Origin: an uncultured Actinomycetota bacterium
Lineage (GTDB): Bacteria; Actinomycetota; Actinomycetes; Actinomycetales; Dermatophilaceae
DNA: 64,000 bases
Assembly (NCBI GenBank): GCA_963752365.1
Contig: CAVVXY010000004.1
Location: forward strand, 3,903-67,902
Direction of reading: 5' to 3'
Made by a program: the position numbers and the translations under genes. Of the stretch, positions 1 through 64,000 are shown one piece after another (position 1 is the first letter of the stretch; each line of letters opens with the position of its first letter). Below the pieces are notes generated by a model, which saw only the letters and a program-made list of their open reading frames with translations, did not search any database and had not been told where the DNA came from.

Positions 1-624
1 TCCGGCGACACGCTTCTCGTCAGCCCGCGCGCCCGCATTCAGCAGCGTCGGGCCCATGCCCTGATCCACCACGAGGTGGGGACCCACCTGGTGACCCAGG
101 TCAACGGTTCGGCTCAACCCGTCAAGGTGCTCGGCACCGGGCTCGCCGGGTACGACGAGACGCAGGAGGGCCTGGCCGTCCTCGCCGAGGTCGCGTGTGG
201 CGGGCTCACCGCCTTCCGGCTGCGACAGCTCGCGGGCCGCGTGCTCACGGTGCACCGGCTCGTCGAGGGCGCGACCTTCCGCGAGGCGCAGGAGGCGCTG
301 GTGGACCAGGGGTTCCCGGAGAGCAGCGCCTTCACGACCACGATGCGGGTCTACCGCGCCGGGGGCCTGACGAAGGACGCGATCTACCTGCGCGGACTCG
401 TCGACCTCCTCGCCCACGTCCGCGACGGCGGGGACGTCGAGCTGCTGTTCCTCGGGAAGTTCTCGCTGCGGGACCTGCCTCTGGTCGCCGGCCTGGCGGC
501 GGACGGCATTCTCCGTCCCGCCCGGCTCCGCCCACGACACCTCGCGGACCATTCCTCCCGCGAGCGCCTCGAACGCGCCGCGAACGGCCCCGCCCTGCAC
601 GCCATCCTGGAAGGACACCCATGA
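1..624 (+). CDS. DUF1704 / QEGLA-motif protein (MATCAP-like putative carboxypeptidase), C-terminal fragment; 5' end outside window
   Basis: Frame is open from base 1. ORF 76..624 carries the family signature ETQEGLAVLAE. Third positions are G/C-rich. Stop overlaps the next start (ATGA 621-624). Confidence 0.7.
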   Translation, partial: SGDTLLVSPRARIQQRRAHALIHHEVGTHLVTQVNGSAQPVKVLGTGLAGYDETQEGLAVLAEVACGGLTAFRLRQLAGRVLTVHRLVEGATFREAQEALVDQGFPESSAFTTTMRVYRAGGLTKDAIYLRGLVDLLAHVRDGGDVELLFLGKFSLRDLPLVAGLAADGILRPARLRPRHLADHSSRERLERAANGPALHAILEGHP

Positions 625-1661
625 AGATCGGATTCGTCGTCAACGACGTCGCCACCGAGAAGGCGCAGTACACGACCAACCGCCTCGCCCTCGCCGCCAA
701 GGAGCAGGGCCACGAGGCGTGGCTCATGGGCGTCGGGGACTTCAGCTACAAGCCGGACGGGTCGCTCGCCACGACGGCGGTCACGGCCTCCGGCAAGAGG
801 TACCGCTCGCTGGACCGTCACCTGGCGGATTTGCAGAAGCCCGACATCGAGCAGCTCATCGACCTCGAGGAGTTCGACGTCGTCATGCTGCGCAACGACC
901 CGGCCGAGGATGCGGAGAGTGCGCCGTGGGCCAACAACGCAGGCGTCGCCTTCGGTCAGCTCATCGCCTCGATGGGCGTCCTCGTCGTCAACGACCCGAC
1001 CAGCCTGGCGAACGCTCTCTCCAAGGCGTACTTCCAGCACTTCCCCGAGGTCGTGCGGCCTCGGACCCTCATCTCCCGGGACGTGGAGCTGATCAAGGCC
1101 TTCGTCGACGACCTCGGTGGCCGGGCGGTCCTCAAGCCCCTGCAGGGCTCCGGCGGGAGCGGGGTGTTCCTCATCAACAGCGCCGAGTCGCCCAACCTCA
1201 GCCAGATCGTCGAGGCGATCTCACGGGACGGCTATGTGGTCGCCCAGGAGTACCTGCCCCAGGCCGAGGAGGGTGACGTCCGGCTCTTCGTCATGAACGG
1301 CCGACCGCTCGAGGTCGACGGCAAGTACGCGGCGTTCCGGCGAATGCCGAGCAGCACCGACATGCGGTCCAACATGTCCGTCGGCGGCAAGGCGGCGAAG
1401 GCCAGGGTGACCGAGGAGATGCTGCACATGGTCGATGTCGTCCGGCCCAAGCTCGTCGCCGACGGCATGTTCCTCTGCGGGCTCGACATCGTCGGCGACA
1501 AGCTCATGGAGATCAACGTCTTCAGCCCCGGGGGCCTGGGCAGCTGCCAGGCCCTCCAGCAGGTCGACTACGCCCCGGTGATCATCGAGGAGCTCGAGCG
1601 CAAGGTGCGCATCCGCAAGCACAACCCGGGGCTGGACAACAGGAGCCTGGCCACGAGCTGA
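621..1661 (+). CDS. ATP-grasp ligase, glutathione-synthetase/RimK-like
   Basis: Internal ATG 621 of ORF 195..1661 (MKIGFVVNDV...). ATP-grasp-like LKPLQGSGGSGVF and MEINVFSPGG. The upstream part of the ORF is Arg/Pro-rich out-of-frame noise. Confidence 0.8.
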   Translation: MKIGFVVNDVATEKAQYTTNRLALAAKEQGHEAWLMGVGDFSYKPDGSLATTAVTASGKRYRSLDRHLADLQKPDIEQLIDLEEFDVVMLRNDPAEDAESAPWANNAGVAFGQLIASMGVLVVNDPTSLANALSKAYFQHFPEVVRPRTLISRDVELIKAFVDDLGGRAVLKPLQGSGGSGVFLINSAESPNLSQIVEAISRDGYVVAQEYLPQAEEGDVRLFVMNGRPLEVDGKYAAFRRMPSSTDMRSNMSVGGKAAKARVTEEMLHMVDVVRPKLVADGMFLCGLDIVGDKLMEINVFSPGGLGSCQALQQVDYAPVIIEELERKVRIRKHNPGLDNRSLATS

Positions 1662-1672
1662 CGTCGGGACGG

Positions 1673-2785
1673 TCAGACGTGGACGACCCACTCGGCGTAG
1701 AACAGCCCGAGCCCGGCGGCCACGCAGATCCCGGCGATGATCCAGAACCGGATGACGATCGTGATCTCGGCCCAGCCGAGGAGCTCGAAGTGGTGGTGGA
1801 GCGGCGCCATCCGGAAGACGCGCTTCCCCCGGAGCCTGAAGCTCAGGATCTGGATGATGACCGACGCCGTGATGATGACGAAGAGGCCGCCGAGGACGAC
1901 GAGCAGCAGCTCGGTCCGGGTGAGGACCGCGAAGCCGGCCAGGCCCGCGCCCAACGACAGCGAGCCGGTGTCGCCCATGATGATCCGCGCCGGCGAGGCG
2001 TTCCACCAGAGGAAGCCGAAGCAGGCGCCGGCCACCGAGCAGGCGACCGCGGCGAGGTCGAGGGCGTTGCTCACGTCGTAGCAGGTGGCGGTCGCGACGA
2101 GGTCGCAGCTCTGGTTGTGCTGCCAGACGCTGATGAGCGTGTAGGCCCCGAAGACCATGGTCGACGCACCCGCGGCGAGGCCGTCGAGGCCGTCGGTGAT
2201 GTTGACGCCGTTCGAGGCGCCGGTGATGAGGAAGTTCGCCCAGACGATGAAGAGGAGGACGCCGCCGACCGACCCGGCCATGCCGAGGTCGAGGCCCGTG
2301 TCGCGGACGAAGGAGACCGCGGTCGAGGCCGGCGTGCGCCCCCGGTCGTCCTCGAGGAGCAGCGCGCCGAGCGCGAAGAGGACGGTGACGAATGCCTGAC
2401 CGGCGAGCTTCTGCTTCGACGTCAGTCCCAGGCTCCGCTCCTTGGAGACCTTCGTGTAGTCGTCGAGGAAGCCGACGAGCCCGAGCCCGAGCATGAGGAA
2501 GAGCACGAGGGCCGCGCTCAGCGAGAAGGAGCCGGGTTCACGCTTGAGCAGCCCCGCGGCATTCAGCCCCATGAAGACGAGGTGGGAGCCGACGTAGCCG
2601 AGCACGGCCGCGGCGAGGATGACGACGCCGCCCATCGTCGGCTTGCCGCGCTTGTAGTGGTGGTGGGTCAGGTCGTCGTGGATGAACTGCCCGTAGCTGC
2701 GCCGGACGAGGAACCGCGCGAAGAGCGGCGTCGCGAGGAGGGCGACGAACATCGAGATGCCCCCGGCCAGCAGGATGTTGACCAT
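1673..2785 (-). CDS. mraY: phospho-N-acetylmuramoyl-pentapeptide transferase
   Basis: ORF 1673..2854, with the start moved to ATG 2785, which is preceded by GGAGGAG. MraY motifs HHYKRGKPTMGG, NGVNITDGLDGLAAG, MGDTGSLSLG, RMAPLHHHFELLGW. Confidence 0.9.
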   Translation of the reverse strand: MVNILLAGGISMFVALLATPLFARFLVRRSYGQFIHDDLTHHHYKRGKPTMGGVVILAAAVLGYVGSHLVFMGLNAAGLLKREPGSFSLSAALVLFLMLGLGLVGFLDDYTKVSKERSLGLTSKQKLAGQAFVTVLFALGALLLEDDRGRTPASTAVSFVRDTGLDLGMAGSVGGVLLFIVWANFLITGASNGVNITDGLDGLAAGASTMVFGAYTLISVWQHNQSCDLVATATCYDVSNALDLAAVACSVAGACFGFLWWNASPARIIMGDTGSLSLGAGLAGFAVLTRTELLLVVLGGLFVIITASVIIQILSFRLRGKRVFRMAPLHHHFELLGWAEITIVIRFWIIAGICVAAGLGLFYAEWVVHV

Positions 2786-2937
2786 CGGCGCTCCTCCTCG
2801 CTCGGCCCGCGCCGCAGGCATTCCGCGACCCCCCATCCTCCGCGCCGGGGACACGCACCCCGCGGGACCCGCCCCGGCGTGTCCCTCTCGTGATGAATGC
2901 AGCGCGGCGCGCAGCCGGTCAGCGTCGCATTCCTCGG

Positions 2938-4125
2938 TCAGGACAGGGCCTCGCGGAGGAGGGCACCCATCGCGCGAACGCCTGCGACGAGGCGGTCGTC
3001 GGGGACGCCGGAGAAGCTCATCCGGGCGTGGTGTCGCTCAGGCCGGTCGGCGAAGAAGGGCGCCCCCGGGACGACGATGACGCCCGAGCGCGGGATGAGC
3101 ACGTCCCTCTGGAATGCCGCGACGTCGAGCCCCTCGGGGAACGTCGCCCACGTGAAGAGCCCGCCCCGCGCGCGGGTCCACGTGATCCCCTCGGGGAAGC
3201 ATTCGGCCATCGTCGCGAGCATGAGGTCGCGCTTGCGGCGGTAGGTCGGGAGCATCCCGGCGATGTGCGCGTCGACGTCGAAGCCGGCGAGGTAACCGGC
3301 GGCGGCCCGCATGTTGAGGGTGCCGTTCTGGGTGTCGGCGGCGAGCTTGAGCAGAGCGAGCTTGTCGTGGACCTCGGGCTGCGCGACCGCCCAGCCGAGC
3401 CGGAGCCCGGGGGCGAGGATCTTGGAGAAGCTCCCGAGATGGACGACCCGGCCGTGCGGGTCGAGGCTGTGGATCGTCGGCACCCGCTCCCCCTCGTAGC
3501 GGAGCTCGCGGTAGGGCGTGTCCTCGAGGACGACGACGTCGTACTCCTCGGCGAGCTCGACGAGCCGGCGGCGACGCTCGAGGCTCATCGTCCGGCCGGT
3601 CGGGTTCTGGAAGTCAGGGACCGTGTAGACGATCTTGACCCGGTCGGTCGTCCGCAGGATCTCCTCGAGGGCGTCGGTGTCCATGCCGTCCTCGTCCATC
3701 GGCACCGACCTGTAGTCCGGCTCGCACGGGTTGAAGGCGATGATCGCGCCGAGGAAGGTCGGCCGCTCGGTGACGATGACGTCGCCCGGGTCGACGAACA
3801 GCTTGGCCGTGAGGTCGAGGCCCTGCTGGCCGCCCTGGATGATGAGGACGTCGTCGGCGGTGCACGGCATCCCGTCGGCGCCGAGCCGCGCAGCGACGAG
3901 GGCGCGCAGCTCCGGCAGCCCCTCCGAGGCCGTGTACTGGAGCGCGGAGGCATTGTCCGGGGAGAGCAGGTCGTCGTAGATCTTGTGCAGCTCGTCGATG
4001 GGGAACAGACCCGGGTCGGGGTAGCCACCGGCGAAGGAGGTGATCGAGGGGTCGCCGGCGAGCGCGAGGAACTCGCGGATGGCCGAGGGCTGGATCCGGT
4101 CGGCCCGTCGGGCGAATGCCGTCAC
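2938..4125 (-). CDS. PLP-dependent aminotransferase, class I/II (AspC / 2-aminoadipate aminotransferase-like)
   Basis: ORF 2938..4125, GTG start. Motifs PDFQNPTG and the PLP-lysine context GSFSKILAPGLRLGW. Length 395 aa. Confidence 0.85.
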   Translation of the reverse strand: MTAFARRADRIQPSAIREFLALAGDPSITSFAGGYPDPGLFPIDELHKIYDDLLSPDNASALQYTASEGLPELRALVAARLGADGMPCTADDVLIIQGGQQGLDLTAKLFVDPGDVIVTERPTFLGAIIAFNPCEPDYRSVPMDEDGMDTDALEEILRTTDRVKIVYTVPDFQNPTGRTMSLERRRRLVELAEEYDVVVLEDTPYRELRYEGERVPTIHSLDPHGRVVHLGSFSKILAPGLRLGWAVAQPEVHDKLALLKLAADTQNGTLNMRAAAGYLAGFDVDAHIAGMLPTYRRKRDLMLATMAECFPEGITWTRARGGLFTWATFPEGLDVAAFQRDVLIPRSGVIVVPGAPFFADRPERHHARMSFSGVPDDRLVAGVRAMGALLREALS

Positions 4126-4133
4126 GCCGGCCC

Positions 4134-4790
4134 TCAGCCGAAGGCCAGGCCGCCGGGGCGGCCCTCGCGCAGGGCGGTGAGGTGCTCGTCGTAGTTCAGG
4201 ACGTCGAAGAGGGACGTGCCCTGGAGCATCCGGGCCTGAAGCCCCTTCTCGCGCGCCTCGATCGTCTCGGCTCCCTCGAGGGCGGCGAGGAGCTCCTCCT
4301 CGGTGCCGACGACGAGCCCGTCGTCGTCGCCGACGACGACCTCTCCCGGCGCGACCCGGACGCCGTCGAGCGACAGCGCGACGCCGGTCTCGGGGAGCGC
4401 GGTCGCGCCATAGGCGTCGGGCGCGAACCCGGTCGACCAGACCGGCATCGACAGCCGGGCGAGGGCGCGGGTGTCCCGGGTCCGGCCGAGGATGACGAGC
4501 CCGGCGAGCCCACGCCGCTGCGCCTCGGTGCCGAAGAGCTCACCGGCGACCGCCCGGTCGTCCCCGCCGGCGTCGACGACGAGGACGTCGCCCGGGCCGG
4601 ACTCGCGCAGGGCGTGGATGACCGACATGAGGTCGCGGTTCGCGCGGGCGGTGACGACGCGGCCCACGAGGTGGCCGCCCGGGACGACGGGACGGAGGGG
4701 GTGCGGCAGGACCCGGAGCGTGCGCCCGGCGTCGACCAGGCTCGTCGTCGAGAGTCGCGCGAGGCGGGAGAGGATGTCTCCGGTCGTCAT
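4134..4790 (-). CDS. RraA-family protein (HMG/CHA aldolase or oxaloacetate decarboxylase-like)
   Basis: ORF 4134..4790. RraA-like core GDVLVVDAGGDDRAVAGELFGTEAQRRGLAGLVILG. Start overlaps the upstream stop (ATGA 4787-4790). Confidence 0.8.
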   Translation of the reverse strand: MTTGDILSRLARLSTTSLVDAGRTLRVLPHPLRPVVPGGHLVGRVVTARANRDLMSVIHALRESGPGDVLVVDAGGDDRAVAGELFGTEAQRRGLAGLVILGRTRDTRALARLSMPVWSTGFAPDAYGATALPETGVALSLDGVRVAPGEVVVGDDDGLVVGTEEELLAALEGAETIEAREKGLQARMLQGTSLFDVLNYDEHLTALREGRPGGLAFG

Positions 4791-4975
4791 GGCCGCTTCT
4801 TCCGGCCTCCGACGGCGACGACGATCCCGAGCAGGGCGACGAACGGACCGATCACGGCCCAGAGCCGCACCCCGCTCATCGCGCTGCCACCGACGACGCC
4901 GAGCCCTTGGAGGGTCCAGAGCACACCGACGGCGACGAGCACGCCGGCGAGGACGAGGGTGAGGGTCCTGTTCAT
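4787..4975 (-). CDS. small two-TM membrane protein, unknown function
   Basis: Internal ATG 4975 of ORF 4787..5026 (MNRTLTLVLAGVLVAVGVLW...). TAGGCT lies 7 nt upstream (leaderless pattern). Two hydrophobic helices and a basic tail. Confidence 0.55.
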   Translation of the reverse strand: MNRTLTLVLAGVLVAVGVLWTLQGLGVVGGSAMSGVRLWAVIGPFVALLGIVVAVGGRKKRP

Positions 4976-4982
4976 GGGCCCC

Positions 4983-4988
4983 AGCCTA
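4983..4988 (-). promoter_or_regulatory. -10 box TAGGCT, leaderless promoter of the small-TM/RraA/aminotransferase operon
   Basis: TANNNT hexamer 7 nt upstream of ATG 4975, with no Shine-Dalgarno in between. Confidence 0.45.
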
Positions 4989-5169
4989 GGGTCCTCAACT
5001 GGACCGCGCGGCAAGCGTTTACGCATTCTCCGAAGTGGGCGCGGGGGTGACCCCGAATGTGGCCTATCCCTCCTCTGATCTGGTCGGACGCCCTCCGGGG
5101 CGGTGGTGGAATGGAGGCGCCGGTCAGAGCAGACGGGTCAACAGGCGAATGCGGAATGGAGTTCCGACA

Positions 5170-7008
5170 ATGGTCGATGTGGACAAGGTGCTGGACGAGG
5201 CTGGGTTGCACAACGCGGCCGTGCGGGACTACGTGCGGCACTGGGCCGAGCACCTGACCCCCGACCGCGTCGAGGTCGTGAGCGCGTCGGACGACGCCCG
5301 CCTCGTGCAGGAGGCGCTCGCCGCTGGGGAGATCCTGCCCGCCGGCGACGGCCTCTACTACTCGCGCTCCTACTCCAAGGACACGGCCCGCTCCGAGGAG
5401 CGGACCATCGTCGCGACGAGCCGCGAGGAGGACCGCGGGGTCTACAACAACTGGCGCCACACGGACGAGATCCGGCCGGTCGTCGAGGGCCACATGAGGG
5501 GCGCGATGGCCGGGAAGACGATGTACGTCATCCCCTACCTCATGGCCCCGCCCGGCTCCCCGCTCGTCAGGTACGCGGCCGGCGTCGAGATCACCGACAA
5601 CCGGACCGTCTGCCTCCACATGATCCGGATGGCCCGCGTCGGGATCGACCTCATCGACGGCCTCGCCGAGCCGGACCACTTCGTCCGCGCCGTCCACGTG
5701 ACCGGCGACCTGCCGAACCTCGGCCAGGGCACCCCCGACGACAAGCGCTACTTCGTCACCGTCGCCGACGAGCGGACGATCCTCCACTTCGGCAGCAGCT
5801 ACGGCGGCAACGCCCTGCTCGGCAAGATCGCGCACGGCCTGCGGCAGGCGGCCTACGACGGCTGGCGGAGCGGAGAGTTCCTCTCCGAGCAGTTCATGCT
5901 CCTCGGCATTCTCGACAAGGAGACGGGCAAGACCTGGCACGTCTGCGGCGGCTTCCCGAGTGCATCCGGCAAGACGAACCTCGCGATGACCCTCGCGCCC
6001 GACGCCCTCGGCGACCGCTACCACGTGTCCTTCTACGGCGACGACATCGCCTGGCTGTGGGTCGACCCGGACAGCGGCGACCTGCTCGCGCTCAACCCGG
6101 AGAACGGCGTCTTCGGCGTCGCCAAGGACACCAACGAGAAGACGAACCCGACCGCGCTCCGGTCGATCGGGGCCGGCTCCACCGCACTGTTCACGAATGT
6201 CGCCTACAACGAGGGCAGCCACGAGGTCTGGTGGGAGGGCCGGACGCCCGAGCGTCCGAGCGACCTCACCGGGTGGATCGACTGGAAGGGCGAGCGGATC
6301 GCCGACCGCAACCCCGACGAGTCCGGAGACCCGTGGGCGCACCCGAACAGCCGCTTCACGACGAGCCTGGCCAACGTGCCCAACGTCGCCGCCGACTACG
6401 ACGACCCCCAGGGCGTCAAGATCGACGCGATCATCTTCGGCGGCCGCACACGCGACCGCGAGCCGCTCGTCCGGGCGATCACCGACCTCCCCGAGGGCGT
6501 CTACGACGGCCTGACGCTGGGCGCGGAGGCGACCTTCGCCGCCGAGGGCGTCGAGGGCAAGCTCCGCTACGACCCGATGTCGATGCGGCCGTTCATGTCC
6601 TACGGCGAGGGCGCCTACGCCCAGCACTGGCTCGACATCGTGGGCGCGGCCAGGGAGCAGCCGATCTTCGCCCACGTCAACTGGTTCCAGCGCGACGCCG
6701 AGGACGGCCACTTCCTCTGGCCGGGCTATCGCGAGAACCTCCGCGCCCTCCTCTGGCTCTGCCGGTACAGGGACGGCGAGGTGAAGGGCCAGGAGACCGC
6801 CGTCGGTGTCATCCCGACGCAGGAGGAGCTCGACCTCGCCGGGCTCGACCTCCCGCAGGCCGACCTCGACCGCGTCCTGACGATCGACCTCCCGCGCTGG
6901 CGTGAGGAGATGGGCTTCCGCGAGGAGCACCTGGCGCAGTTCCGCGACCTGCCCGAGGAGATCTGGGAGGCCCACCGCCGGGTGGCCAAGGCGCTCGACG
7001 AGAGCTGA
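5170..7008 (+). CDS. pckG: phosphoenolpyruvate carboxykinase (GTP)
   Basis: Internal ATG 5170 of ORF 5035..7008, with GGAG 9 nt upstream. GTP-PEPCK motifs GGFPSASGKTNLAM and FGGRTRDREPLV. Length 613 aa. Confidence 0.95.
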   Translation: MVDVDKVLDEAGLHNAAVRDYVRHWAEHLTPDRVEVVSASDDARLVQEALAAGEILPAGDGLYYSRSYSKDTARSEERTIVATSREEDRGVYNNWRHTDEIRPVVEGHMRGAMAGKTMYVIPYLMAPPGSPLVRYAAGVEITDNRTVCLHMIRMARVGIDLIDGLAEPDHFVRAVHVTGDLPNLGQGTPDDKRYFVTVADERTILHFGSSYGGNALLGKIAHGLRQAAYDGWRSGEFLSEQFMLLGILDKETGKTWHVCGGFPSASGKTNLAMTLAPDALGDRYHVSFYGDDIAWLWVDPDSGDLLALNPENGVFGVAKDTNEKTNPTALRSIGAGSTALFTNVAYNEGSHEVWWEGRTPERPSDLTGWIDWKGERIADRNPDESGDPWAHPNSRFTTSLANVPNVAADYDDPQGVKIDAIIFGGRTRDREPLVRAITDLPEGVYDGLTLGAEATFAAEGVEGKLRYDPMSMRPFMSYGEGAYAQHWLDIVGAAREQPIFAHVNWFQRDAEDGHFLWPGYRENLRALLWLCRYRDGEVKGQETAVGVIPTQEELDLAGLDLPQADLDRVLTIDLPRWREEMGFREEHLAQFRDLPEEIWEAHRRVAKALDES

Positions 7009-7019
7009 GTCTCGGGTTG

Positions 7020-7077
7020 GAGTTATCGGGTCACCCGATAACTCTGCGGAATACAGGGAAGACTTCCCTGTATTCCG
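7020..7077 (+). terminator. two adjacent perfect palindromes downstream of pckG
   Basis: GAGTTATCGGGT-C-ACCCGATAACTC (7020-7044) and CGGAATACAGGGAAG-A-CTTCCCTGTATTCCG (7047-7077), 12 nt after the pckG stop. The stretch is AT-richer than its surroundings. Confidence 0.6.
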
Positions 7078-7121
7078 TCGGCTTGTCTGTAGCCGCGCCG
7101 TCCCAGAGGACGGTCGCCGGA

Positions 7122-7127
7122 TAGGTT
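7122..7127 (+). promoter_or_regulatory. -10 box TAGGTT, leaderless promoter
   Basis: TAGGTT lies 7 nt upstream of GTG 7135. Confidence 0.45.
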
Positions 7128-7134
7128 CACCGAT

Positions 7135-8277
7135 GTGAATGCATCCGGCTCGGGGCCGCTCGCCGGCGTGCGGGTCGTCGAGATGGCCGGGATCGGCCCG
7201 GCGCCGTTCGCGGCGATGATCCTCGCCGAGCTCGGGGCCGACGTCGTTCGGGTCGAACGGCCCGGGGGCGTCTCGCCGATGGCCGCCGCCGACGGGCTCC
7301 AGCGCTCACGGCCCAATGTGGCGCTCGACCTCAAGCACCCGGACGGGGCGGCGGTCGTCCGGCGCCTCGCGGCGGGCGCGGACGTCCTCGTCGAGGGGAT
7401 GCGGCCGGGCGCGATGGAGCGCCTGGGCCTCGGCCCCGACGAGCTCCTCGGGCTCAACCCGCGGCTCGTCTACGGGCGGATGACCGGCTGGGGGCAGGAC
7501 GGGCCGTGGGCGCAGGCGGCCGGACACGACATCACGTACGCCGCGATCACCGGCGCCCTCCACGCGTGCGGCCCCGCGGGCAAGCCGACCCCGCCGCTCA
7601 ACGTCCTCGCCGACTTCGCCGGCGGCTCGCTGCCGCTCGTCATCGGGGTCCTCGCCGCGCTCCAGTCCCGCGAGCGGACGGGGAAGGGGCAGGTCGTCGA
7701 CGCCGCGATGGTCGATGGAGCGGTGTCGCTGCTCTCGATGGTCCACGGCCTCCTCGACGCGGGCCTGTGGCAGGACCGGCGCGGCGTCAACCTCCTCGAC
7801 GGCGGCGTCCCGTTCTACGACACCTACGAGTGCGCGGACGGGCGCTGGGTCGCCGTCGGCGCGCTCGAGCCGCAGTTCTGGGGGGAGCTCAACCGCATTC
7901 TCGGACTGTCCTTCGAGCGGGCGCAGGAGGACCCGGCGGGCTTCGACGCCCAGCGCACTGCGTACGCCGCCGCCTTCCGGACCCGGACGCGCGACGAGTG
8001 GGCGACGGTCTTCGAGGGCTCCGACGCGTGCGTCGCGCCCGTCCTGTCGCTCGAGGAGGCGCCGGCGCACCCCCACCTCGCCGCGCGGAATGCCTTCGCC
8101 GACCTCCCGGGCGGCCGTGCCCCTCGTGTGGCGCCCCGCTTCTCGGCGACGCCGTCCCCGGCCCCGACCCCGGCCCAGCCGGTCGGGTCGGGGACCGTCG
8201 CCGTCCTCCTCGCCGACGGCTTCACCCAGGACGAGGTCGACGCCCTCCTCGCCTCCGGCGCGGCCGTCCAGGCCTGA
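7135..8277 (+). CDS. family III CoA-transferase (CaiB/BaiF), alpha-methylacyl-CoA racemase-like
   Basis: ORF 7135..8277, GTG start. N-terminal GPLAGVRVVEMAGIGPAPFAAMILAELGADVVRVERP is typical of the family. Confidence 0.85.
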   Translation: MNASGSGPLAGVRVVEMAGIGPAPFAAMILAELGADVVRVERPGGVSPMAAADGLQRSRPNVALDLKHPDGAAVVRRLAAGADVLVEGMRPGAMERLGLGPDELLGLNPRLVYGRMTGWGQDGPWAQAAGHDITYAAITGALHACGPAGKPTPPLNVLADFAGGSLPLVIGVLAALQSRERTGKGQVVDAAMVDGAVSLLSMVHGLLDAGLWQDRRGVNLLDGGVPFYDTYECADGRWVAVGALEPQFWGELNRILGLSFERAQEDPAGFDAQRTAYAAAFRTRTRDEWATVFEGSDACVAPVLSLEEAPAHPHLAARNAFADLPGGRAPRVAPRFSATPSPAPTPAQPVGSGTVAVLLADGFTQDEVDALLASGAAVQA

Positions 8278-8285
8278 GGCTCCCG

Positions 8286-8594
8286 ATGCCGTCCCGACGC
8301 CGACCCAGCAAGCACGCACGCGACCACATCCCCTTGGACGCCGCCCGCTTCCGGGACGCGGGGACGCGGGAGGACACCTACCGCGGGGCCCGGTGGACGG
8401 TGCGGTCGGTGACCGGGGCGTCGGCGACCCGCGCCTACCTCTGCCCGGGCTGCCAGCAGGACATCGCCCGGGGCACGGCCCATGTGGTCGCCTGGCCGGC
8501 CGACGGCGTCGGCGGGCTCGAGGACCGGCGGCATTGGCACACCGGCTGCTGGCAGCGGCGCGACGCCCGCCCGCCCGGCAGCGCCTACCGCTGA
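8286..8594 (+). CDS. small Cys/His zinc-ribbon-like protein, unknown function
   Basis: Internal ATG 8286 of ORF 7506..8594, 8 nt after the previous stop. YLCPGCQQ...HWHTGCW metal-binding pattern. Confidence 0.55.
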   Translation: MPSRRRPSKHARDHIPLDAARFRDAGTREDTYRGARWTVRSVTGASATRAYLCPGCQQDIARGTAHVVAWPADGVGGLEDRRHWHTGCWQRRDARPPGSAYR

Positions 8595-8680
8595 GTGACT
8601 GGCCCTTTCGAGCCATTCCCCGCGTGGTCCCCCCCGCGTAGCGTCGGCCTCTGGGAGGTCCCCTGCCGAAAGGTCCACCC

Positions 8681-9322: not shown

Positions 9323-9442
9323 CGTCGGCGGGGAGACGCGACGCACCTTCCTACCGCCGGTAACCTTGCGGTACAGTCGGTACCTGACACAGCGAGTACC
9401 GGGTACATCGGTGCTCGGCGACCGATCCAGGAAGGTCCGGCC

Positions 9443-12045: not shown

Positions 12046-12082
12046 GCCACTCCCGGGTGGCGAATGCCGCCCGACGCCCGCC

Positions 12083-12088: not shown

Positions 12089-12094
12089 CGGCGC

Positions 12095-21881: not shown

Positions 21882-21905
21882 CCCGCCAGTCAACCAGCGC
21901 GGCGG

Positions 21906-56770: not shown

Positions 56771-59700
56771 CGCCGCTGCCCCTTGGCCTGGAGGATCGGG
56801 TCCCACACCCGGGGGGCGTAGTAGCGGAGCGTCCCCAGATGGTCGAGCCGGTGCAGCGGCGCGTCGGGGCCGAGGAGGGCGACCCACCAGCGGTCGTCCC
56901 GCTCGGGGAAGCGCCCGGACCACTCGTCGTCGGCCCGGCGCAGGGCCCGCTGGACCCGCTGGTCGGGGCTGCCGAACGGCGAGGCGAGCCCGACGGCATA
57001 GGCGTGCGCCGTCTTGGGCGGGATGCCGAGGGGGAACTGCAGTCCCTTGGTCCGCACCCCGACGAGCTCGTCGAGCAGGGTGACGGCAATGTCGACCGGT
57101 GGCGCCACGAGCCGGACCATGCCCTTCTTGCCCGTCAGCTCGGCGGACCACCGCGTCTCCGGCTCGGCGACCCCGAGCGCGAGCAGTCGGACCCAGGCGG
57201 CCACCTCGTGCTTCGGGCCGATCGTCGAGTAGGTCGTCACGGTGATGCGGCTGTCCTCGACGCCCCCGATGACCCCGGTCACCCGGACGCCCGACGGGAG
57301 GTCGAGACGGACGTCGACCGAGCGCGGCGTCCCGCGGCTGGCTCCCTGCGCGATCGCGGCGACCAGGTCGGCGACGTCGCGCCGCAGAGTGCCGGAGAGG
57401 GCGGCCGGGGGGAGCGTGCCGGCGCGCTGCTCGCGGGCGAGGACGGCATCGGCATTCGCACCGTCGAGGACGGCGTGGAGGACCCGGTCGCCGACGCCCC
57501 ACTGCTCGAGGCTGTCGAGGGCGATCGGGATGTGGTCGGCGGGCTCGTCGTCCTCTCTCGGCACGCCGATCCCGAGGCGGGCTCGGGCGAACTCGCGGGC
57601 GGGGTTCTCGACGAACCGCGTCAGCTCCTCGATCGTCACGGCCGACACGGGCACGGCGGGCAGTGCCGCGGCGACGAGCAGGGGCCGGGCCGTCTCGCCG
57701 CTCGCGCGCTGCGCGCGCAGGGCCTCGGCGCCGTCGAGCGCGGCCCGGTCGAAGGAGCCGCCGACGACCGGGGACTGCGGGCCGAAGTTGCGCGCGTCGA
57801 ATGCCTGGAGCGGGTGGATGCGGACGAGCCCGTCGCCGCTCGTGTCCTCGCCGGGCACCCGCCCGGTCCGGCGGGCGGCCGAGATGAGCTCCTGGAGCGG
57901 GACCGCAGGAGGGCGACGGGCGCCGGTGTGCTCGTCGTGCCCGGAGTACAGCGCGACGAAGTGGTCGCTGGCGGACATGAGGGCGTCGAGGAGGAGCTGC
58001 CGGTCCTCGCTGCGCAGGTCGCGCTGGCCGACGACCGGCTCCCGGGCGAGGGCGTCGTCGCCGTCGATGACGGGCGAGCGGGGGAAGGCCCCGTCGTCGA
58101 CGCCGAGGACGGCGACGACCCGGTGCGGGATCGAGCGCATCGGGACCATCGTGCAGACGGTCATCGCGCCGGTGCGGAAGTTGGCCCGGGTCGGCCGGGC
58201 GCCCCAGCGGTGGCCGAGCAGGACGGCGACGTCGTTGATCCGGAGCGGCAGGTCGTCCCCGCCGTCGGCGATGACCGCGAGCTCGGCGTCGAGCTGGGCG
58301 AGCTGCCAGCGGTCCGCGGGCGGCACGTCACCGAGGGCCGTCACCGTCTCGCGCAGCCAGTCGGCCCACGCGCGGGCCGTCAGCGACCCGAGCGCGGGAC
58401 CGGTCGTCGGCCCACCCGGGCGGACCAGCGCGCTCGCCCGCCGAATCCGCTCGAGGAGCTCGAGGAACCGCCCGACGAGCTCGATCGCGCGGCTCCCGAT
58501 GTCGTCGATCGGCGCGAGGTCCGCGGCCGGTGACGCGGAGTCCGCGGCGACGGCGACCCCGAGCGCCAGCCGGTCGAGTCCGGCGGCCCACGTGTTGTCG
58601 CCGACCCCGGCGAGGCCGTAGCCGGCACGGTGCTCCTCGTCCAGGCCCCAGCGCGTCCCGGACTCGGCGACCCAGTGCCCGAGCGTCGCGAGGTCGTCCT
58701 CGTCGAACCCGAAGCGGCGCGCCACCGCCTCGTGCCCGGCGAGCCCGAGCACCTCCGACGCGGTCAGCCGGCCGGCGACGAGTCCGACGAGGAGCTGGGC
58801 GAGCTCGACGAGCGGGTTGGTCGCGGCGAGCCGGCGGTCCGCGAGCTGCACCCGCAGCTCGTGGCCAGGATGACGAGGGATGACGCGGTCGGAGCCGGTC
58901 GCCCCGGTGCCGAAGGCCGCGCGGACGAGCGGCGCGACCTCCTCGACGTCCGGGCAGAGGACGAGGACGTCGCGAGGCTCCAGGGTCGGGTCGTCCTGGA
59001 AGAGCTGGGTCAGGACCTCGCGCAGCACCTCGACCTGACGGGCTCGGCCGTGGCAGGCGTGGACCTGGACCGACAGGTCGCCCTCGGGCAGCGGGTGGGT
59101 CGGGTCGGGGGCGCGGTTGGCCCGGATGTCCGCCTGAAGGCGGGCGAGGCGCGAATGCGGGGCCACCGGCTCGGCGTCCACTCCGCCGCCGCCCTCGACG
59201 ACGTCCGACGACGCGACCGCGCCGGCGCCGAGGAGGCACTCCTCGAGCTCGCGGACGTCGCGCCCGAGGGTCGCGAGGAGCGGGTGACGCGCCGACATCG
59301 CGCTGCGATCGTCCCGCCGGGTCCTCGGGCGGGGCGCCGAGCCCGGACCCCCGGCGGCGAGCGCCTCCCACAACGCGGGCGAGGCGTGCGGGAGCCACAG
59401 GTGCACGTCCCGGTCCGTCCCGAGCGCGACGAGGAGCTCGATCTCGGAGGAGGGCAGGCGGGTGTGGCCGAAGAGGGAGAGCCGGCGGGGGACGTCGAGC
59501 GCGGCGGTCCCGTCCCGCAGGGAGGCGACGACCCGAGCCAGGCGTGCCGACGGCGACTCCTCGACCCCGCTGCGCCGCATGACCTCCGGGAGCAGCCGCC
59601 GCCAGAGCTCCGGCTGCCAGGCGAGGTCGGCGTCGAGTGCCCCACCGCACCCGTCGCCGGACGAGCCGGCCTCCCAGTCGGCGAGCATCGCGGGGCGTTC

Positions 59701-60165
59701 GCGGGCGTACGCGGAGTAGAGCCCGGCGAGACGACGCGCGACGGAGTAGCGGCGGGTCTGCCGCGCCTGGCGCCGCCACTCGAGGTCGCCGATCGCCTCG
59801 ACCGGGCCGCCGCCGAGGTGCCGGGTCAGGGACTCGAAGCCGGGGAGGCCCATGCATTCGTCGATCGTCGCGAGCATCGGCCAGGCGAGCCGCTCGGCGA
59901 CCCAGGGGTCTTCGCGGTCGCGACCGAGGACGAGGCCGACGAGGGAAGCGGGCGAGATGAGCTCGAGCCCCGCGCAGACGCCGTCGTCCGCCGAGCTCGC
60001 GCCGAGGACGTGCGAGAGCCGCTGGGTGAGCCAGCGTTGGACGCCCTGCGCGGGGACGACGACCCACTCGGGGTCGAAGACGTCCCCGGGCTCGTCCCCG
60101 AGCATCGCGGCGAGTCCGTCGGCCAGGGCCTGCGGACGGTCGCTGCGGTGGACGACGACGGGCAT
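56767..60165 (-). CDS. recC: exodeoxyribonuclease V gamma subunit
   Basis: ORF 56767..60165, 1132 aa. The N-terminus (VVVPAQGVQRWLTQRLS) and its position upstream of recB-recD fit RecC. Confidence 0.85.
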   Translation of the reverse strand: MPVVVHRSDRPQALADGLAAMLGDEPGDVFDPEWVVVPAQGVQRWLTQRLSHVLGASSADDGVCAGLELISPASLVGLVLGRDREDPWVAERLAWPMLATIDECMGLPGFESLTRHLGGGPVEAIGDLEWRRQARQTRRYSVARRLAGLYSAYARERPAMLADWEAGSSGDGCGGALDADLAWQPELWRRLLPEVMRRSGVEESPSARLARVVASLRDGTAALDVPRRLSLFGHTRLPSSEIELLVALGTDRDVHLWLPHASPALWEALAAGGPGSAPRPRTRRDDRSAMSARHPLLATLGRDVRELEECLLGAGAVASSDVVEGGGGVDAEPVAPHSRLARLQADIRANRAPDPTHPLPEGDLSVQVHACHGRARQVEVLREVLTQLFQDDPTLEPRDVLVLCPDVEEVAPLVRAAFGTGATGSDRVIPRHPGHELRVQLADRRLAATNPLVELAQLLVGLVAGRLTASEVLGLAGHEAVARRFGFDEDDLATLGHWVAESGTRWGLDEEHRAGYGLAGVGDNTWAAGLDRLALGVAVAADSASPAADLAPIDDIGSRAIELVGRFLELLERIRRASALVRPGGPTTGPALGSLTARAWADWLRETVTALGDVPPADRWQLAQLDAELAVIADGGDDLPLRINDVAVLLGHRWGARPTRANFRTGAMTVCTMVPMRSIPHRVVAVLGVDDGAFPRSPVIDGDDALAREPVVGQRDLRSEDRQLLLDALMSASDHFVALYSGHDEHTGARRPPAVPLQELISAARRTGRVPGEDTSGDGLVRIHPLQAFDARNFGPQSPVVGGSFDRAALDGAEALRAQRASGETARPLLVAAALPAVPVSAVTIEELTRFVENPAREFARARLGIGVPREDDEPADHIPIALDSLEQWGVGDRVLHAVLDGANADAVLAREQRAGTLPPAALSGTLRRDVADLVAAIAQGASRGTPRSVDVRLDLPSGVRVTGVIGGVEDSRITVTTYSTIGPKHEVAAWVRLLALGVAEPETRWSAELTGKKGMVRLVAPPVDIAVTLLDELVGVRTKGLQFPLGIPPKTAHAYAVGLASPFGSPDQRVQRALRRADDEWSGRFPERDDRWWVALLGPDAPLHRLDHLGTLRYYAPRVWDPILQAKGQRR

Positions 60166-62900: not shown

Positions 62901-63027
62901 GGACACGGGCTCTCCTGGGTCGGGCCGCGCAGGTGCGCGGAGTTCAGTCAGTCAGTGTGCCGGATGTGACGGGTGTGACTCGTGAGGCTCGCCGTGCGGG
63001 ACGAGCGGGCCGCGGAGCCGAATGCGG

Positions 63028-63666
63028 TCAGACGACCCCGTAGAGCCGGTCGCCGGCGTCGCCGAGGCCGGGGACGATGTAGCCGAGCTCGTTGAGCCTC
63101 TCGTCCATCGCGCCGGTCACGAGCGTGACCGGCGGGCTGATGTCCCGGGTCTCGTCCTCGAGGTGCGCGACGCCCTCGGGCGCGGACAGGAGGGTGACGG
63201 CGGTGATGTCGTTGGCACCCCGGTCGGCGAGGTAGCGGATCGCCATGGCGAGCGACCCGCCCGTCGCGAGCATCGGGTCGATGACGTAGACCTGCCGCCC
63301 GGACAGGTCGTCGGGGAGCCGGTTGGCGTAGGTGATCGCCTCGAGGGTCTCCTCGTTGCGCTGCATCCCGAGGAAGCCGACCTCGGCGCTCGGCAGCAGC
63401 CGGACCATGCCCTCGAGCATCCCGAGCCCGGCCCGCAGGATCGGGACGATGAGCGGCTTGGGGTTGGACAGCTTGACGCCCGTCGTCGGCCCCACCGGGG
63501 TCTGGATCGCGAACGGCTCGGTCCGCACCTCGCGGGTCGCCTCGTAGGCGAGCAGCGTCACGAGCTCCTCGGCGAGCCGCCGGAAGGTCGGGCTGTCGGT
63601 CCGCTTGTCCCGCAGGTAGGTCAGCTTGTGGGTGATGAGCGGGTGGTCGGCAACGATGACGCGCAT
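63028..63666 (-). CDS. upp: uracil phosphoribosyltransferase
   Basis: ORF 63028..63666. [13 protein letters not shown], the PRPP-binding motif [13 protein letters not shown], and [12 protein letters not shown]. Confidence 0.95.
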
Positions 63667-63682
63667 GCGCGAAACTTACCGC

Positions 63683-64000
63683 GTGACCCCGCCGACCGGC
63701 CCCGCCGCATTCGCGGACTGGGTGGGCCGCGCGCTCGCGCTCGCCGAGCGGTCGGCCGGGACGCAGGACGTGCCGGTCGGGGCGCTCGTCGTCGCCCCGT
63801 CGGGTGAGGTGATCGGCGAGGGCTGGAACGCCCGGGAGGGCGCCGACCCCGACCCGACCGCGCACGCTGAGGTCGTCGCGCTCCGGGCCGCGGCCCGCGC
63901 GACCGGCTCCTGGCGGCTCGATGGCTGCACCCTCGTCGTCACCCTCGAACCGTGCCCGATGTGCGCCGGCGCCATGATGCTCGCGCGGGTCGACCGGGTC
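63683..64000 (+). CDS. tadA: tRNA-specific adenosine deaminase, N-terminal part; 3' end outside window
   Basis: My own translation from GTG 63683: ...DVPVGALVV...TAHAEVVALR...LEPCPMCAGAM (HAE and PCxxC zinc motifs). The frame is open to the window end. Confidence 0.8.
   Translation, partial: MTPPTGPAAFADWVGRALALAERSAGTQDVPVGALVVAPSGEVIGEGWNAREGADPDPTAHAEVVALRAAARATGSWRLDGCTLVVTLEPCPMCAGAMMLARVDRV

Follow-up and report, generated by a model that had tools for sequence, protein, structure and literature searches.

The question raised by this locus is why a single hexamer, GAATGC or its complement GCATTC, recurs all along it and what could be reading such a word. We addressed it in the window, i.e. 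the whole stretch of 64,000 nucleotides analysed here, and in related loci of about 20 kb.

Abundance of GAATGC and its writing into genes

GAATGC/GCATTC was counted 105 times over positions 1-64000, a density of 1.64 per kb. On the + strand, 52 copies lie between 1342 and 63025 (starts at 1342, 2390, 2895, 3112, 4114, 5147, 7137, 8088, 10252, 12062, 12826, 13859, 14507, 15878, 17538, 18217, 19500, 21660, 23313, 25018, 26809, 27767, 28533, 29020, 30845, 31684, 32903, 33591, 35351, 35868, 38427, 39511, 39891, 41177, 42186, 43719, 45398, 47491, 48251, 49365, 49502, 49643, 50761, 52127, 54247, 55217, 56747, 57799, 59153, 60494, 61912 and 63020). The 53 copies on the - strand, read as GCATTC on the + strand, lie between 35 and 63712 (starts at 35, 506, 2559, 2818, 2927, 3199, 5023, 5906, 7895, 10025, 10481, 11270, 12104, 12961, 15900, 19068, 20671, 21581, 21721, 23292, 24530, 24709, 25377, 26726, 27814, 28593, 29600, 29919, 30927, 31388, 31735, 32894, 33087, 35420, 37098, 37676, 38606, 42817, 43333, 44828, 46377, 47042, 49647, 50566, 51569, 51614, 53082, 54543, 57452, 59854, 60162, 62070 and 63707). 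The first-pass annotation had estimated more than 100 copies, divided about equally between the orientations; both statements were borne out, with a signal stronger than claimed, and each of the eleven starts given for the first 5 kb, from 35 to 4114, was correct.

Independent bases predict 15.8 copies per 64 kb, Markov models of order 1, 2 and 3 predict 13.8, 13.7 and 36, and dinucleotide-preserving shuffles gave 13.56 ± 4.13 (maximum 25, n = 100). Using a 52-gene model of the window, synonymous codons were then shuffled with proteins and codon usage preserved. Coding sequences contain 87 copies against 9.6 ± 2.9 in these shuffles (z = 27), far above the codon-corrected expectation and about nine-fold more than the genes require. 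GAATGC/GCATTC was by far the top hexamer in this test, no other AT-containing hexamer being equally enriched except words that overlap it. The remaining 18 copies fall in intergenic DNA, which makes up 5.6% of the window, an approximately 3-fold enrichment, and every gene longer than 1.4 kb carries at least one copy. As had been noticed, most AAT and ATT trinucleotides (52 of 74 and 53 of 75, i.e. 70%) sit inside the word.

Extended, the consensus reads G-N-C-GAATGC-[C/G]-G, and its flanks are graded. The GAATGC[CG]G form represents 55 of the 105 copies (0.86 per kb), and the decamer GGCGAATGCC, both orientations counted, 13 of them; base composition predicts about 0.3 for GGCGAATGCC and GGCATTCGCC together. 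The nine GGCGAATGCC and three GGCATTCGCC sites listed in the first pass are correct, and one GGCGAATGCC, at 1339, had been overlooked.

In narG, a GGCGAATGCC decamer (42183-42192, +) writes the A-F-A of ...HMAFALDWH as GCA TTC GCC on the coding (-) strand, as claimed for 42183-42191. Two overlapping copies, GAATGCATTC (49643-49652), encode G-N-A-F-G of PntB as GGG AAT GCA TTC GGC, and both are kept at the orthologous position of pntB in the related contig L088. The inverted pair CGCATTCG-G-CGAATGCG (32893-32909) fills the 24-nt gap between the convergent genes of an AMP-binding enzyme (31246-32886, +) and a DUF4442 protein (32911-33372, -). Three copies (2818 -, 2895 +, 2927 -; 2818-2932) occupy the 155-nt spacer upstream of a mraY-type gene (1676-2785, -) that passes the NCBIfam equivalog cut-off for mraY. 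Additionally, the convergent pair GGCGAATGCC ... GGCATTC (12062 +, 12104 -; 12059-12109) spans the junction of an acyl-CoA dehydrogenase gene and the next gene. The sites at 32893, 49643 and upstream of mraY had all been described, and inverted pairs do exist, but they resemble terminators only weakly: of the 17 close pairs, 11 are intragenic, and the 32893 pair, with a loop of only 1 nt, would be a DNA palindrome that could hardly fold into a terminator hairpin as RNA.

Synonymous potential sites are realised as GAATGC in 23-56% of cases in all six frames, compared to 2-8% expected, by the codon shifts GAG to GAA, xGG to xGA, AAC to AAT, GCG to GCA, ATC to ATT and CAC to CAT, which involve word positions 2, 3 and 4. 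The initial G is needed (GAAYGC, 24 T to 6 C; CAAYGC, 2 T to 16 C), flank bases are enriched at realised compared to unrealised sites within frame classes, and, in spacers as in each reading frame, the whole word is preferred to all of its one-step neighbours. Because the word is realised in six frames through three positions and has graded flanks, neither composition nor codon usage nor one hypermutable base can account for it. The earlier view that the word occurs in every frame of both coding strands, and that the signal lies on DNA and not on protein, is thus upheld; the rare codons, the intergenic enrichment and the coincidence of several words with amino-acid differences from orthologues point the same way.

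A neutral by-product would come from a context-dependent mutation hotspot (e.g. deamination of methylated C in GAACGC), from a VSP-type footprint or from a general compositional or codon effect. Consistent with this, GAACGC/GCGTTC is depleted (37 vs 68, z = -5.2), as the sole clearly depleted one-step neighbour common enough to judge, and the commonest word classes are synonymous transitions. However, positions 2, 3 and 4 are all affected, GGATGC and GAGTGC show no depletion, the GAAYGC total is itself in excess (124 vs ~78), and flanks matter. The very-short-patch-repair footprint, or single hot base, suggested in the first pass does not hold, since three positions contribute to the preference for the word and it is the form with T that is enriched. 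Together with the spacing, the codon retention and the word-less loci described below, these data largely refute a neutral origin, which we regard as very unlikely.

Orientation and spacing of the copies

The + series is more even than random placement, with a spacing CV of 0.46 vs 0.97 (0 of 5000 simulations as low) and a largest gap of 2559 vs a random mean of 5468. In the same way, the - series has a CV of 0.73 vs 0.97 (P = 0.013). Per-orientation evenness also holds against a potential-site null (0.51 vs 0.88 and 0.68 vs 1.01), which argues against a neutral by-product, and was replicated in L088, L001, L015 and L003 (mean CV 0.58 vs 0.86, 0 of 4000 simulations as low). Each series amounts to about one copy per 1.2 kb.

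Neighbouring copies are oppositely oriented in 72 of 104 cases in the window (permutation P < 5e-5) and in 154 of 218 over seven loci (P ~1e-9), or 82 of 114 when the window is excluded. Within 300 nt, 6 neighbours share the orientation and 44 are opposite: exclusion over about 300 nt operates between copies of like orientation but not between opposite ones. The seven loci present no strand skew (52:53, 13:16, 9:13, 6:8, 9:9, 11:7 and 10:9).

Such a pattern could arise if an abundant nucleoid-associated or chromosome-organising protein bound the word and selection on chromosome structure preserved its sites; the regular spacing and conservation of the copies and the graded motif are in favour of this. 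The conservation and periodicity of the cyanobacterial repeat HIP1 have been interpreted likewise, as chromosome-protein binding or structure selection (PMC5861425). Nevertheless, a duplex binder gives no obvious reason for excluding same-orientation copies while tolerating opposite ones, and selection per site would be very weak, yet the words are written in rare codons and at amino-acid differences. No candidate protein is known to us, and we consider this explanation distinctly improbable.

Lineage distribution and maintenance

None of 80 related PEPCK loci is enriched in GAATGC, and the word is present in three related contigs, L088, L094 and L095. A sister word of the same architecture, GTATGC(CG), was found in L001/L081-84, L015 and L003, i.e. 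in Phycicoccus elongatus and two MAGs; the extended words are GTATGCCG in P. elongatus and GAATGCSG in the GAATGC lineage. Neither word is enriched in 77 PEPCK loci, L085-L087 and L089-L093, and the other loci scanned lack the word at a G+C content similar to that of the window. GAATGC is a lineage-specific word. The lineage restriction and the sister word, like the per-orientation spacing and the alternation, go beyond the first-pass annotation, and together the four suggest a reader that is directional or strand-specific, a property not expected under simple uptake-sequence models.

The window and L088 come from diverged genomes, and 10 of the 17 word sites that the window has in orthologous genes recur in L088. 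At conserved residues, A/T-ending codons are kept in 20 of 25 cases inside words (80%) and in 28 of 229 outside (12%; Fisher P = 2e-12), a difference that speaks against a neutral by-product. The dipeptides AF and NA exhibit observed/expected ratios of 1.22 and 1.27, compared to 0.93 and 0.69 in relatives without a word. The word is maintained, and on our best reading it is actively created and preserved at the DNA level. As a separate observation, the recC copy at 59854-59859 (-), codons 103-104 GAA TGC, is conserved in the window, L088 and Knoellia sp. (L089), in the last although its locus has no word enrichment.

It is hardly credible that the words are errors introduced at a modified motif during the assembly or base-calling of long-read metagenomes. 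The contigs L088 and L094 do have Flye-style names, and L094 contains frameshift-like split genes, but the phenomenon is also present in the isolate genome of P. elongatus Lp2, the MEGAHIT-style contigs L081-L084 carry words at identical positions, and GAATGC occurs in the Logan contig L095 (judging by their names, L081-L084 and L095 are of short-read origin). An artefact would, moreover, convert one true motif nearly completely, not about 35% of three neighbours with flank dependence.

Candidate readers of the word

Three readings take account of such a reader or of the spread of the word, a Chi-like signal being ranked first, with an uptake or transfer signal and methylase/nickase-linked repair as close rivals.

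The word could act like DUS/USS, or serve an FtsK/TraB-type conjugative DNA pump, such that conspecific DNA would be preferentially imported or exported and recombination would spread the copies (molecular drive). The likeness to uptake sequences proposed in the first pass stands for abundance, strand neutrality, even spacing, dialects, graded flanks and the dipeptide effect, and no other candidate has as many descriptive features in common with the word. With a genome of about 1.8 Mb, H. influenzae has about 0.8 USS per kb, close to the 0.86 per kb of GAATGC[CG]G. Its 1471 USS are, as GAATGC, significantly evenly spaced (PMC2238722) and used equally on both strands, without orientation bias (PMC1939737). 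DUS dialects occur in related lineages (PMC3630211), as GAATGC and GTATGC do, and Findlay & Redfield showed that intragenic uptake sequences shift peptide frequencies (PMC2817400), as is seen here; the intergenic enrichment and the inverted pairs fit as well. However, uptake in H. influenzae is independent of signal orientation (PMC1939737), so an uptake model predicts even spacing of the pooled copies and not two independent orientation-specific series that alternate. The 64-kb window contains no competence or transfer genes, and a 6-bp core gives little specificity. We know of no natural transformation or sequence-specific uptake in Intrasporangiaceae, and hold this reading to be possible but rather unlikely.

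Equally doubtful, in our estimate, is a HIP1-like repair ratchet, in which a lineage-specific enzyme pair derived from an R-M system would recognise the asymmetric word. Through a mark or nick on one strand, the word would direct excision repair; correction close to marked sites would be biased and generate new words, up to the point where each strand carries one within reach of excision (~1 kb). GAATGC is the BsmI-type specificity, in a family that includes natural strand-specific nickases. In the model of Elhai for HIP, saturation is expected once there is about one site per 1000 nt, further sites adding nothing (PMC4390886), and the 1.2 kb per orientation of GAATGC fits it. A mark or nick on one strand would need both orientations, which would explain the alternation and the absent replichore skew. 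The patchy distribution and the one-base switch between GAATGC and GTATGC are typical of mobile R-M specificities, and gains come from the transition neighbour (GCG TTC, 22 vs ~42 expected from Ala codon usage), not from the transversion one (GCC TTC, 47 vs 51). Against this, no methyltransferase or nickase gene is seen in the window, nor any nuclease gene except recBCD; the Nanomotif preprint mentions neither GAATGC, GTATGC nor Tetrasphaera; graded flank preferences are unusual for R-M recognition; and the Elhai model is unproven even for HIP1. To our knowledge, Actinobacteria lack MutS/L/H, and nick-directed repair of this kind is not known in them.

The reading that we tentatively place first is a Chi-like signal addressed to a helicase-nuclease that processes DNA ends, which could be the actinobacterial AdnAB or the RecBCD of the window (recD 51642-53405, recB 53405-56770 and recC 56770-60165, 51642-60165 on the - strand), assigned by Pfam matches and taken as context only. 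Of the machines that the window encodes, RecBCD alone is known from other organisms to recognise a short word in one orientation (Chi). The putative reader would track DNA one way or act on one strand, each orientation thus 'covering' one direction. Linear DNA, from a broken chromosome or incoming and homologous, would be digested from both ends as far as the first word in the correct orientation, and segments flanked by a word in each orientation would survive and recombine preferentially. Favouring such bracketed segments would bias transmission towards new words (molecular drive), with a smaller gain from a second word close by in the same orientation. Were two-ended substrates dominant, replichore skew would not be needed, and changes in the recognition pocket would give co-evolving 'dialects'.

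The recBCD operon is found in the word-bearing L088, L094 and L095 and also in the word-less L089-L093. RecBCD is therefore no predictor of the word: Knoellia (RecC 73% identical) and L090-L093 carry the operon without an enriched word. Among NCBI-sourced sequences, no RecC at 58-100% identity was found besides those of L088, Knoellia and Kribbia, so P. elongatus may lack a close RecC and yet bears its own word. Characterised Chi sites are co-oriented with replication, in contrast to GAATGC and GTATGC, without strand skew in the seven loci. The nine-fold excess in rare codons is also much stronger than that of known Chi and resembles uptake sequences and HIP1. The existence of Chi in Actinobacteria is an open question (PMC5314763).

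Our best reading of these data is that GAATGC serves one Intrasporangiaceae lineage as a 'self' word that acts in cis across the genome, with a direction-dependent reader and with biased transmission or repair preserving it. Actinobacteria would seem to have in it a new equivalent of DNA uptake sequences, Chi sites or the HIP1 repeat.

Abundance and codon context of GAATGC

GAATGC occurs 52 times in the window and its complement GCATTC, i.e. the minus-strand copy of the same word, 53 times, giving 105 copies at a G+C content of 72.6%. For both strands together, base composition predicts 15.8 copies and Markov models of order 1, 2 and 3 predict 13.8, 13.7 and 36, while 100 dinucleotide-preserving shuffles gave 13.56 ± 4.13 copies with a maximum of 25. 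A model of 52 genes, in which about 94% of the sequence is coding and the narG start lies about 190 codons too early, was built for this analysis from codon-usage log-odds, and synonymous codons were permuted among positions of the same amino acid, keeping every protein and the overall codon usage. The coding sequences contain 87 copies compared to 9.6 ± 2.9 in these shuffles (z = 27), and the nearest rival hexamers lay far below GAATGC, except for words overlapping it. An artefact of composition or codon usage is therefore ruled out by the Markov models of orders 0-3 and by both kinds of shuffle. Strong over-representation, shared equally between the strands (52:53), is also a property of DUS/USS.

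The word positions reported by the first-pass annotation were all correct upon recount. Its sites for the decamer GGCGAATGCC were right as well, but one copy at 1339 had been overlooked, the total being 13 with the complement. AAT and ATT trinucleotides are, as it had remarked, concentrated in the word, which holds 52 of the 74 AAT and 53 of the 75 ATT.

The intergenic 5.6% of the window carries 18 copies, about three times its proportional share, and no gene longer than 1.4 kb is without a copy. The gene content is that of an ordinary chromosome, with PEPCK, acyl-CoA dehydrogenases, narGHJI with two MFS transporters, pntAB, recBCD, upp, glutathione synthetase and an mraY equivalog. The mraY-type gene (1676-2785, minus strand) passes the NCBIfam equivalog cut-off (283 bits versus 192) and adjoins a glutathione synthetase and an aminotransferase gene, outside any dcw cell-wall cluster; glutathione synthetase is unusual in an actinobacterium. 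We also observed a tandem crcB fluoride-channel gene pair at 18603-19357 (minus strand) without a fluoride riboswitch, and at 33514-35187 (plus strand) a gene for a 558-aa protein with no Pfam match and a C-terminal 'sunset' domain (NCBIfam NF051437). Rfam scans at the gathering threshold and tRNA scans of the 64-kb window gave no match.

The word is written with codons that are otherwise rare. GCA makes up 4% of alanine codons, yet it is used at 29 of the 99 alanines preceding a Phe TTC codon; AAT makes up 11% of asparagine codons, yet 29 of 55 before alanine, and 17 of the 20 ATT codons lie in the context xGC ATT Cxx. The protein sequences would permit the word synonymously at 251 potential sites, and it is realised at 86 of them, with a realisation of 23-56% in each of the six frame and strand classes versus 2-8% expected. 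The preference thus acts on DNA, and on the whole word: the alternatives that are replaced differ at word position 2 (xGG/ATC), 3 (GAG, CAC) or 4 (AAC, GCG), so that there is no single hot base. The first G is required, the Y of GAAYGC being T in 24 cases and C in 6, and that of CAAYGC T in 2 and C in 16. In a given frame class, realised sites are richer than unrealised potential ones in G at −3, C at −1, C or G at +1, and G at +2, which extends the motif to approximately G-N-C-GAATGC-[C/G]-G; GAATGC[CG]G alone has 55 copies. GAATGC is asymmetric, and the extended form GGC-GAAT-GCC is a partial palindrome only.

Among the one-step neighbours common enough to judge, GAACGC is the only one clearly depleted (37 vs 68). 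A single hypermutable C, turning GAACGC into GAATGC, is a tempting explanation of this depletion, and is ruled out by the equal contributions of positions 2 and 3, by the excess of the GAAYGC sum (124 vs about 78) and by the ordered spacing of the copies. The transition neighbour GCG TTC is drawn down (22 observed vs about 42 expected from alanine codon usage), in contrast to the transversion neighbour GCC TTC (47 vs 51), which suggests a mutation-limited input followed by preferential retention. VSP repair, as carried out by Dcm/Vsr in enterobacteria, also biases, at the DNA level, how often a short word and the words one step from it occur, and its footprint had been proposed for GAATGC. Such a footprint, however, is confined to a single T/G position, where the methylated, C-containing site is favoured. 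The bias towards GAATGC involves positions 2, 3 and 4, the T/A form is the one in excess, GAACGC is depleted, and the copies are evenly spaced, so the proposal does not stand.

The word leaves an imprint on the proteins. Several copies fall where the protein differs from its orthologues, for example at an A-F here that is E-F, D-F, H-L or P-V elsewhere, and the observed/expected ratios of the dipeptides AF and NA are 1.22 and 1.27, compared to 0.93 and 0.69 in 14 word-free high-G+C loci.

Two further biases were observed in the window. GCATGC, a palindrome of the SphI type that differs by one step from GAATGC and from the sister word GTATGC, is about 4-fold under-represented (8 vs 31.5 under the order-2 Markov model; 5 vs 20 in codon shuffles of the coding sequences) and is also scarce in many related loci, word-bearing or word-free. 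CCCCCC/GGGGGG is strongly avoided in coding sequences (14 vs 83 in synonymous shuffles), as are several other words made of C/G runs.

Lineage dialects and conservation of word sites

The analysis drew on 64 kb of source genome sequence and, for the relatives, on loci about 6-23 kb long. At 88% amino-acid identity, the best match of the window PEPCK is that of Phycicoccus (Tetrasphaera) elongatus Lp2, with none above this value, which places the organism in the Intrasporangiaceae. None of the 80 PEPCK-centred loci (80 species) has an excess of GAATGC, whose density in the high-G+C ones is at most 0.3 per kb versus 1.64 per kb in the window. Three of them are instead enriched in GTATGC/GCATAC: that of P. 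elongatus Lp2 (L001), that of a MAG (L015) and that of an Intrasporangiaceae MAG (L003), with 18-19 copies each against about 3 expected, or roughly one per kb. GTATGC, likewise asymmetric, is realised at about 20% of its synonymous potential sites versus 3-6% expected. Its flanked form is GTATGCCG in L001 and L015 and GTATGCG in L003, and GTAYGC is mostly T while CTAYGC is mostly C, the same pattern as for GAATGC. The GTATGC copies of L001 recur in four metagenome contigs (L081-L084) from P. elongatus strains, at 97-98% identity; the polymorphism among these strains and L001 includes too few differences to polarise gains and losses or to locate recombination edges.

A search with the window RecC yielded three loci at 74-75% RecC identity in which GAATGC itself is in excess, namely L088 (29 vs 3.5), L094 (22 vs 2.9) and L095 (14 vs 3.9); the matches also included a protein 100% identical to the window RecC. 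No enriched word was found in recBCD-bearing Knoellia sp. (RecC 73%) or in two further lineages (70% and 66%). In L094, a split amino-acid permease gene and fused or split recC-recB genes (1537-9671) resemble long-read frameshift errors. An assembly or base-calling artefact as the source of the word is barely credible, and one of long-read base calling in particular is unlikely: the phenomenon is also present in an isolate genome, in short-read-style contigs (a type inferred from the contig names) and in a Logan contig, and an artefact would not yield a partial, flank-dependent conversion of three different neighbours.

In a rough neighbour-joining tree of PEPCK, as in all the phylogeny here a single-protein one, the word-bearing lineages are not cleanly monophyletic; we gave this tree no weight because PEPCK has paralogues in the group. 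In P. elongatus strains, two PEPCK (GTP) genes of 607 and 612 aa are adjacent and divergently transcribed (L081:7634-11839, also in L082 and L083), and with paralogues side by side PEPCK is a risky phylogenetic marker here. In one P. elongatus strain contig (L082:10358-14686), where Lp2 diverges sharply, a PIN-domain gene is followed by a large Fic, Cas3_HD and Cas3 C-terminal fusion, which probably represents a defence island.

A density-sorted 7-mer scan of all loci for further dialects was uninformative, as codon words dominate its output. An apparent 'ATTTGC/AAATCA' excess in a related MAG (L085) is due to a local tandem repeat, in which six copies of a unit of about 31 nt containing GGTGATTTGCCCGGGCAGTTGC lie directly downstream of PEPCK (11970-12170). 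A metagenome scan for the double word of the window pntB gave no match.

Within the GAATGC dialect, the word is maintained between diverged genomes. At conserved residues, the window and L088 use the same codon in 74% of cases, and 10 word sites are shared, 7 occur in the window only (17 in total there) and 7 in L088 only. Where a conserved residue has an A/T-ending codon whose third base falls in the word, the other genome has the identical codon 20 times out of 25, compared to 28 of 229 outside words (Fisher P = 2e-12). The sites are thus conserved beyond neutral expectation, as HIP words are. Part of this sharing could be independent re-creation at favourable sites; whether the word is retained or re-created, a persistent force keeps it in place. 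Word positions are not shared across dialects or with distant relatives: the window, L001, L003 and L015 have none in common but one CGN ATG CCG site (CGA ATG CCG / CGT ATG CCG), and shared ancestry of sites across dialects is therefore rejected. An origin of GTATGC in P. elongatus by deamination of GCATGC was also rejected, since in the PEPCK orthologue alignment the traceable gains replace Tyr TAC and none replaces His CAT.

HIP1 and the alternative cyanobacterial palindromes are, like GAATGC, hyper-abundant inside and between genes, conserved beyond neutral expectation, non-randomly spaced and replaced by other words in some lineages. Unlike GAATGC, which is asymmetric, AT-cored in a high-G+C genome and has no known methyltransferase, HIP words are palindromic, hence without orientation, and are tied to known orphan methyltransferases. 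The function of HIP1, obscure for decades, has since been connected with methylation and with transformation (PMC5861425, PMC4390886, bioRxiv 10.64898/2026.06.24.733823).

Orientation-specific spacing and alternation

When all copies in the window are pooled, their spacing is more even than random (CV 0.75 vs 0.99, P = 0.001); no gap exceeds 1937 nt, where random placement gives a mean maximum of 3160. The plus series alone has a CV of 0.46, with 0 of 5000 simulations as low, and a largest gap of 2559 nt versus 5468; the minus series alone has a CV of 0.73 (P = 0.013). The evenness persists when the null instead picks the realised sites by chance among the potential sites in each frame class (CV 0.51 vs 0.88 and 0.68 vs 1.01). 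Each orientation is more regular than their union because two independently even series are superposed. Per-orientation evenness is repeated in L088, L001, L015 and L003 (mean CV 0.58 vs 0.86, 0 of 4000 simulations as low).

The orientation alternates at 72 of the 104 neighbouring pairs in the window (permutation P < 5e-5) and at 22/28, 13/21, 8/13, 15/17, 13/17 and 11/18 pairs in six other loci, i.e. at 154 of 218 for the seven loci pooled (P ~1e-9) and at 82 of 114 without the window (P = 3e-6). Among neighbours within 300 nt in five pooled loci, 6 pairs have the same orientation and 44 the opposite one. A copy in one orientation is no substitute for a copy in the other, and the word covers the DNA in each orientation about every 1.2 kb. 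We take this to mean that the reader of the word is directional or strand-specific, and that there is less benefit or drive for a new copy if one in the same orientation is already present a few hundred bases away or closer. Orientation-specific order is not predicted by a neutral mutational bias, which is very improbable as the cause. We are highly confident that the feature is real, non-neutral and structured by orientation.

In all seven loci, which are unplaced relative to ori and ter, the orientations are approximately 1:1 with no strand skew, unlike KOPS/SRS (FtsK-type) words, whose strong skew flips at ori/dif.

An uptake signal, one of the possibilities first raised for the word, or a transfer signal matches the largest number of descriptive features among the readings considered. 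DUS/USS are also short asymmetric words, found about once per kb, equally on both strands and with significantly even spacing (PMC1939737, PMC2238722); they also occur within genes, in several reading frames, and alter peptide frequencies (PMC2817400), are enriched between genes with occasional inverted pairs, have a core with weaker flanks, and form lineage dialects one or two bases apart (PMC3630211). Their core is 9-12 bp, whereas that of GAATGC is 6 bp (8-10 bp with flanks). Uptake itself is reported to be orientation-independent (PMC1939737), whereas here it is the genomic arrangement that depends on orientation, with separate, alternating even series and exclusion of same-orientation copies within 300 nt. 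The host is a high-G+C actinobacterium without known competence: the 64-kb window contains no competence gene and no Competence domain, a weak DUF4131 match at 15579-17450 being below cut-off. No organism of this lineage is known to be transformable. An uptake or transfer signal appears rather unlikely.

Possible readers of the word

The word has the statistical properties common to DUS/USS, HIP1 and Chi, and lacks a characteristic feature of HIP (the palindrome), of Chi and KOPS (the skew) and of VSP repair (the single T/G position). We infer that a sequence-specific reader moves along the DNA or acts on a single strand, combined with a transmission or repair bias; organism-level selection on each site would be very weak. 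Our confidence in any single mechanism is low.

We rank a Chi-like signal first, as a tentative proposal, because helicase-nucleases read short asymmetric words from one side (PMC4824097, PMC3321194) and because recD, recB and recC (51642-60165) encode a RecBCD-type enzyme in the window. No Chi is known for actinobacterial enzymes (PMC5314763). Like GAATGC, the Chi words of RecBCD/AddAB are short (5-8 nt), asymmetric, species-specific and over-represented, and orientation matters to their readers. If linear homologous DNA were protected from both ends, copies that alternate at even distances would be favoured, with no replichore skew. On the other hand, GAATGC has no replication-related strand skew, it uses rare codons, and its excess is much stronger than is known for any Chi. 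The recBCD operon is also present in word-free relatives, RecBCD does not correlate with the word and was rejected as its predictor, and no close P. elongatus RecC was among the RecC search matches. Beside recBCD, word-free relatives carry defence-type genes (L090:4711-8443 and 21016-23375; L089, Knoellia sp.:18978-23182), including OLD-family ATPase and UvrD-like helicase genes (Gabija-like), an HsdM-type methyltransferase and GmrSD-type nucleases.

A methyltransferase- or nickase-linked repair ratchet is another possibility; the first-pass annotation had mentioned a methylation or nicking target. GAATGC is identical to the asymmetric hexamer recognised by BsmI, and a mark on one strand would require both orientations. 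Host genomes usually avoid restriction-modification targets or are neutral towards them, and do not enrich them 9-fold. Graded flanks (−3, −1, +1 and +2 affect realisation) are unusual for such enzymes and, like the sister word GTATGC, are not explained by a BsmI-type target. No cognate gene and no methyltransferase was found within the 64-kb window. According to Elhai's model, HIP words should saturate at roughly one site per kb (PMC4390886), which matches the spacing of about 1.2 kb per orientation; the literature search returned no paper linking Intrasporangiaceae to methylation motifs, and the Nanomotif preprint is silent on the word. We consider the ratchet rather unlikely, as we do an uptake or transfer signal, and sites for a nucleoid protein, also suggested earlier, improbable.

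More generally, the word may be a strand- or direction-specific 'coverage' mark, needed about every 1.2 kb per orientation and read by machinery not yet tied to any sequence word in Actinobacteria; we regard this as possible rather than probable. The first actinobacterial Chi and a strand-discrimination or nick-entry repair signal are the candidates. Such a mark would include a one-base shift of specificity, from GAATGC to GTATGC, between sister lineages, among them the culturable wastewater organism P. elongatus. To our knowledge, MutS, MutL and MutH are absent from the phylum.

GAATGC belongs with the genome-wide iterated words, a known type of feature, of which our literature search found no description in Actinobacteria; its orientation-specific order may be a new property or define a new class. 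Iterated words kept against codon preference are, as far as we know, found in few clades, namely Neisseriaceae, Pasteurellaceae and cyanobacteria, with Chi words as a milder case, and each has given insight into DNA uptake, recombination or repair. Actinobacteria are now added, with two dialects, one of them in P. elongatus Lp2; as this strain can be grown, methylome, uptake and RecBCD/AdnAB assays are feasible. In practice, binning, the assignment of mobile elements to hosts and the spotting of recently acquired DNA can use the word as a sharp lineage marker. Its orientation-specific spacing is a new quantitative property that narrows the mechanism to readers that are directional or strand-specific. 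The word bears on whether actinobacterial end-processing enzymes have a Chi and on how strands or 'self' DNA are marked in a phylum without MutS/L.
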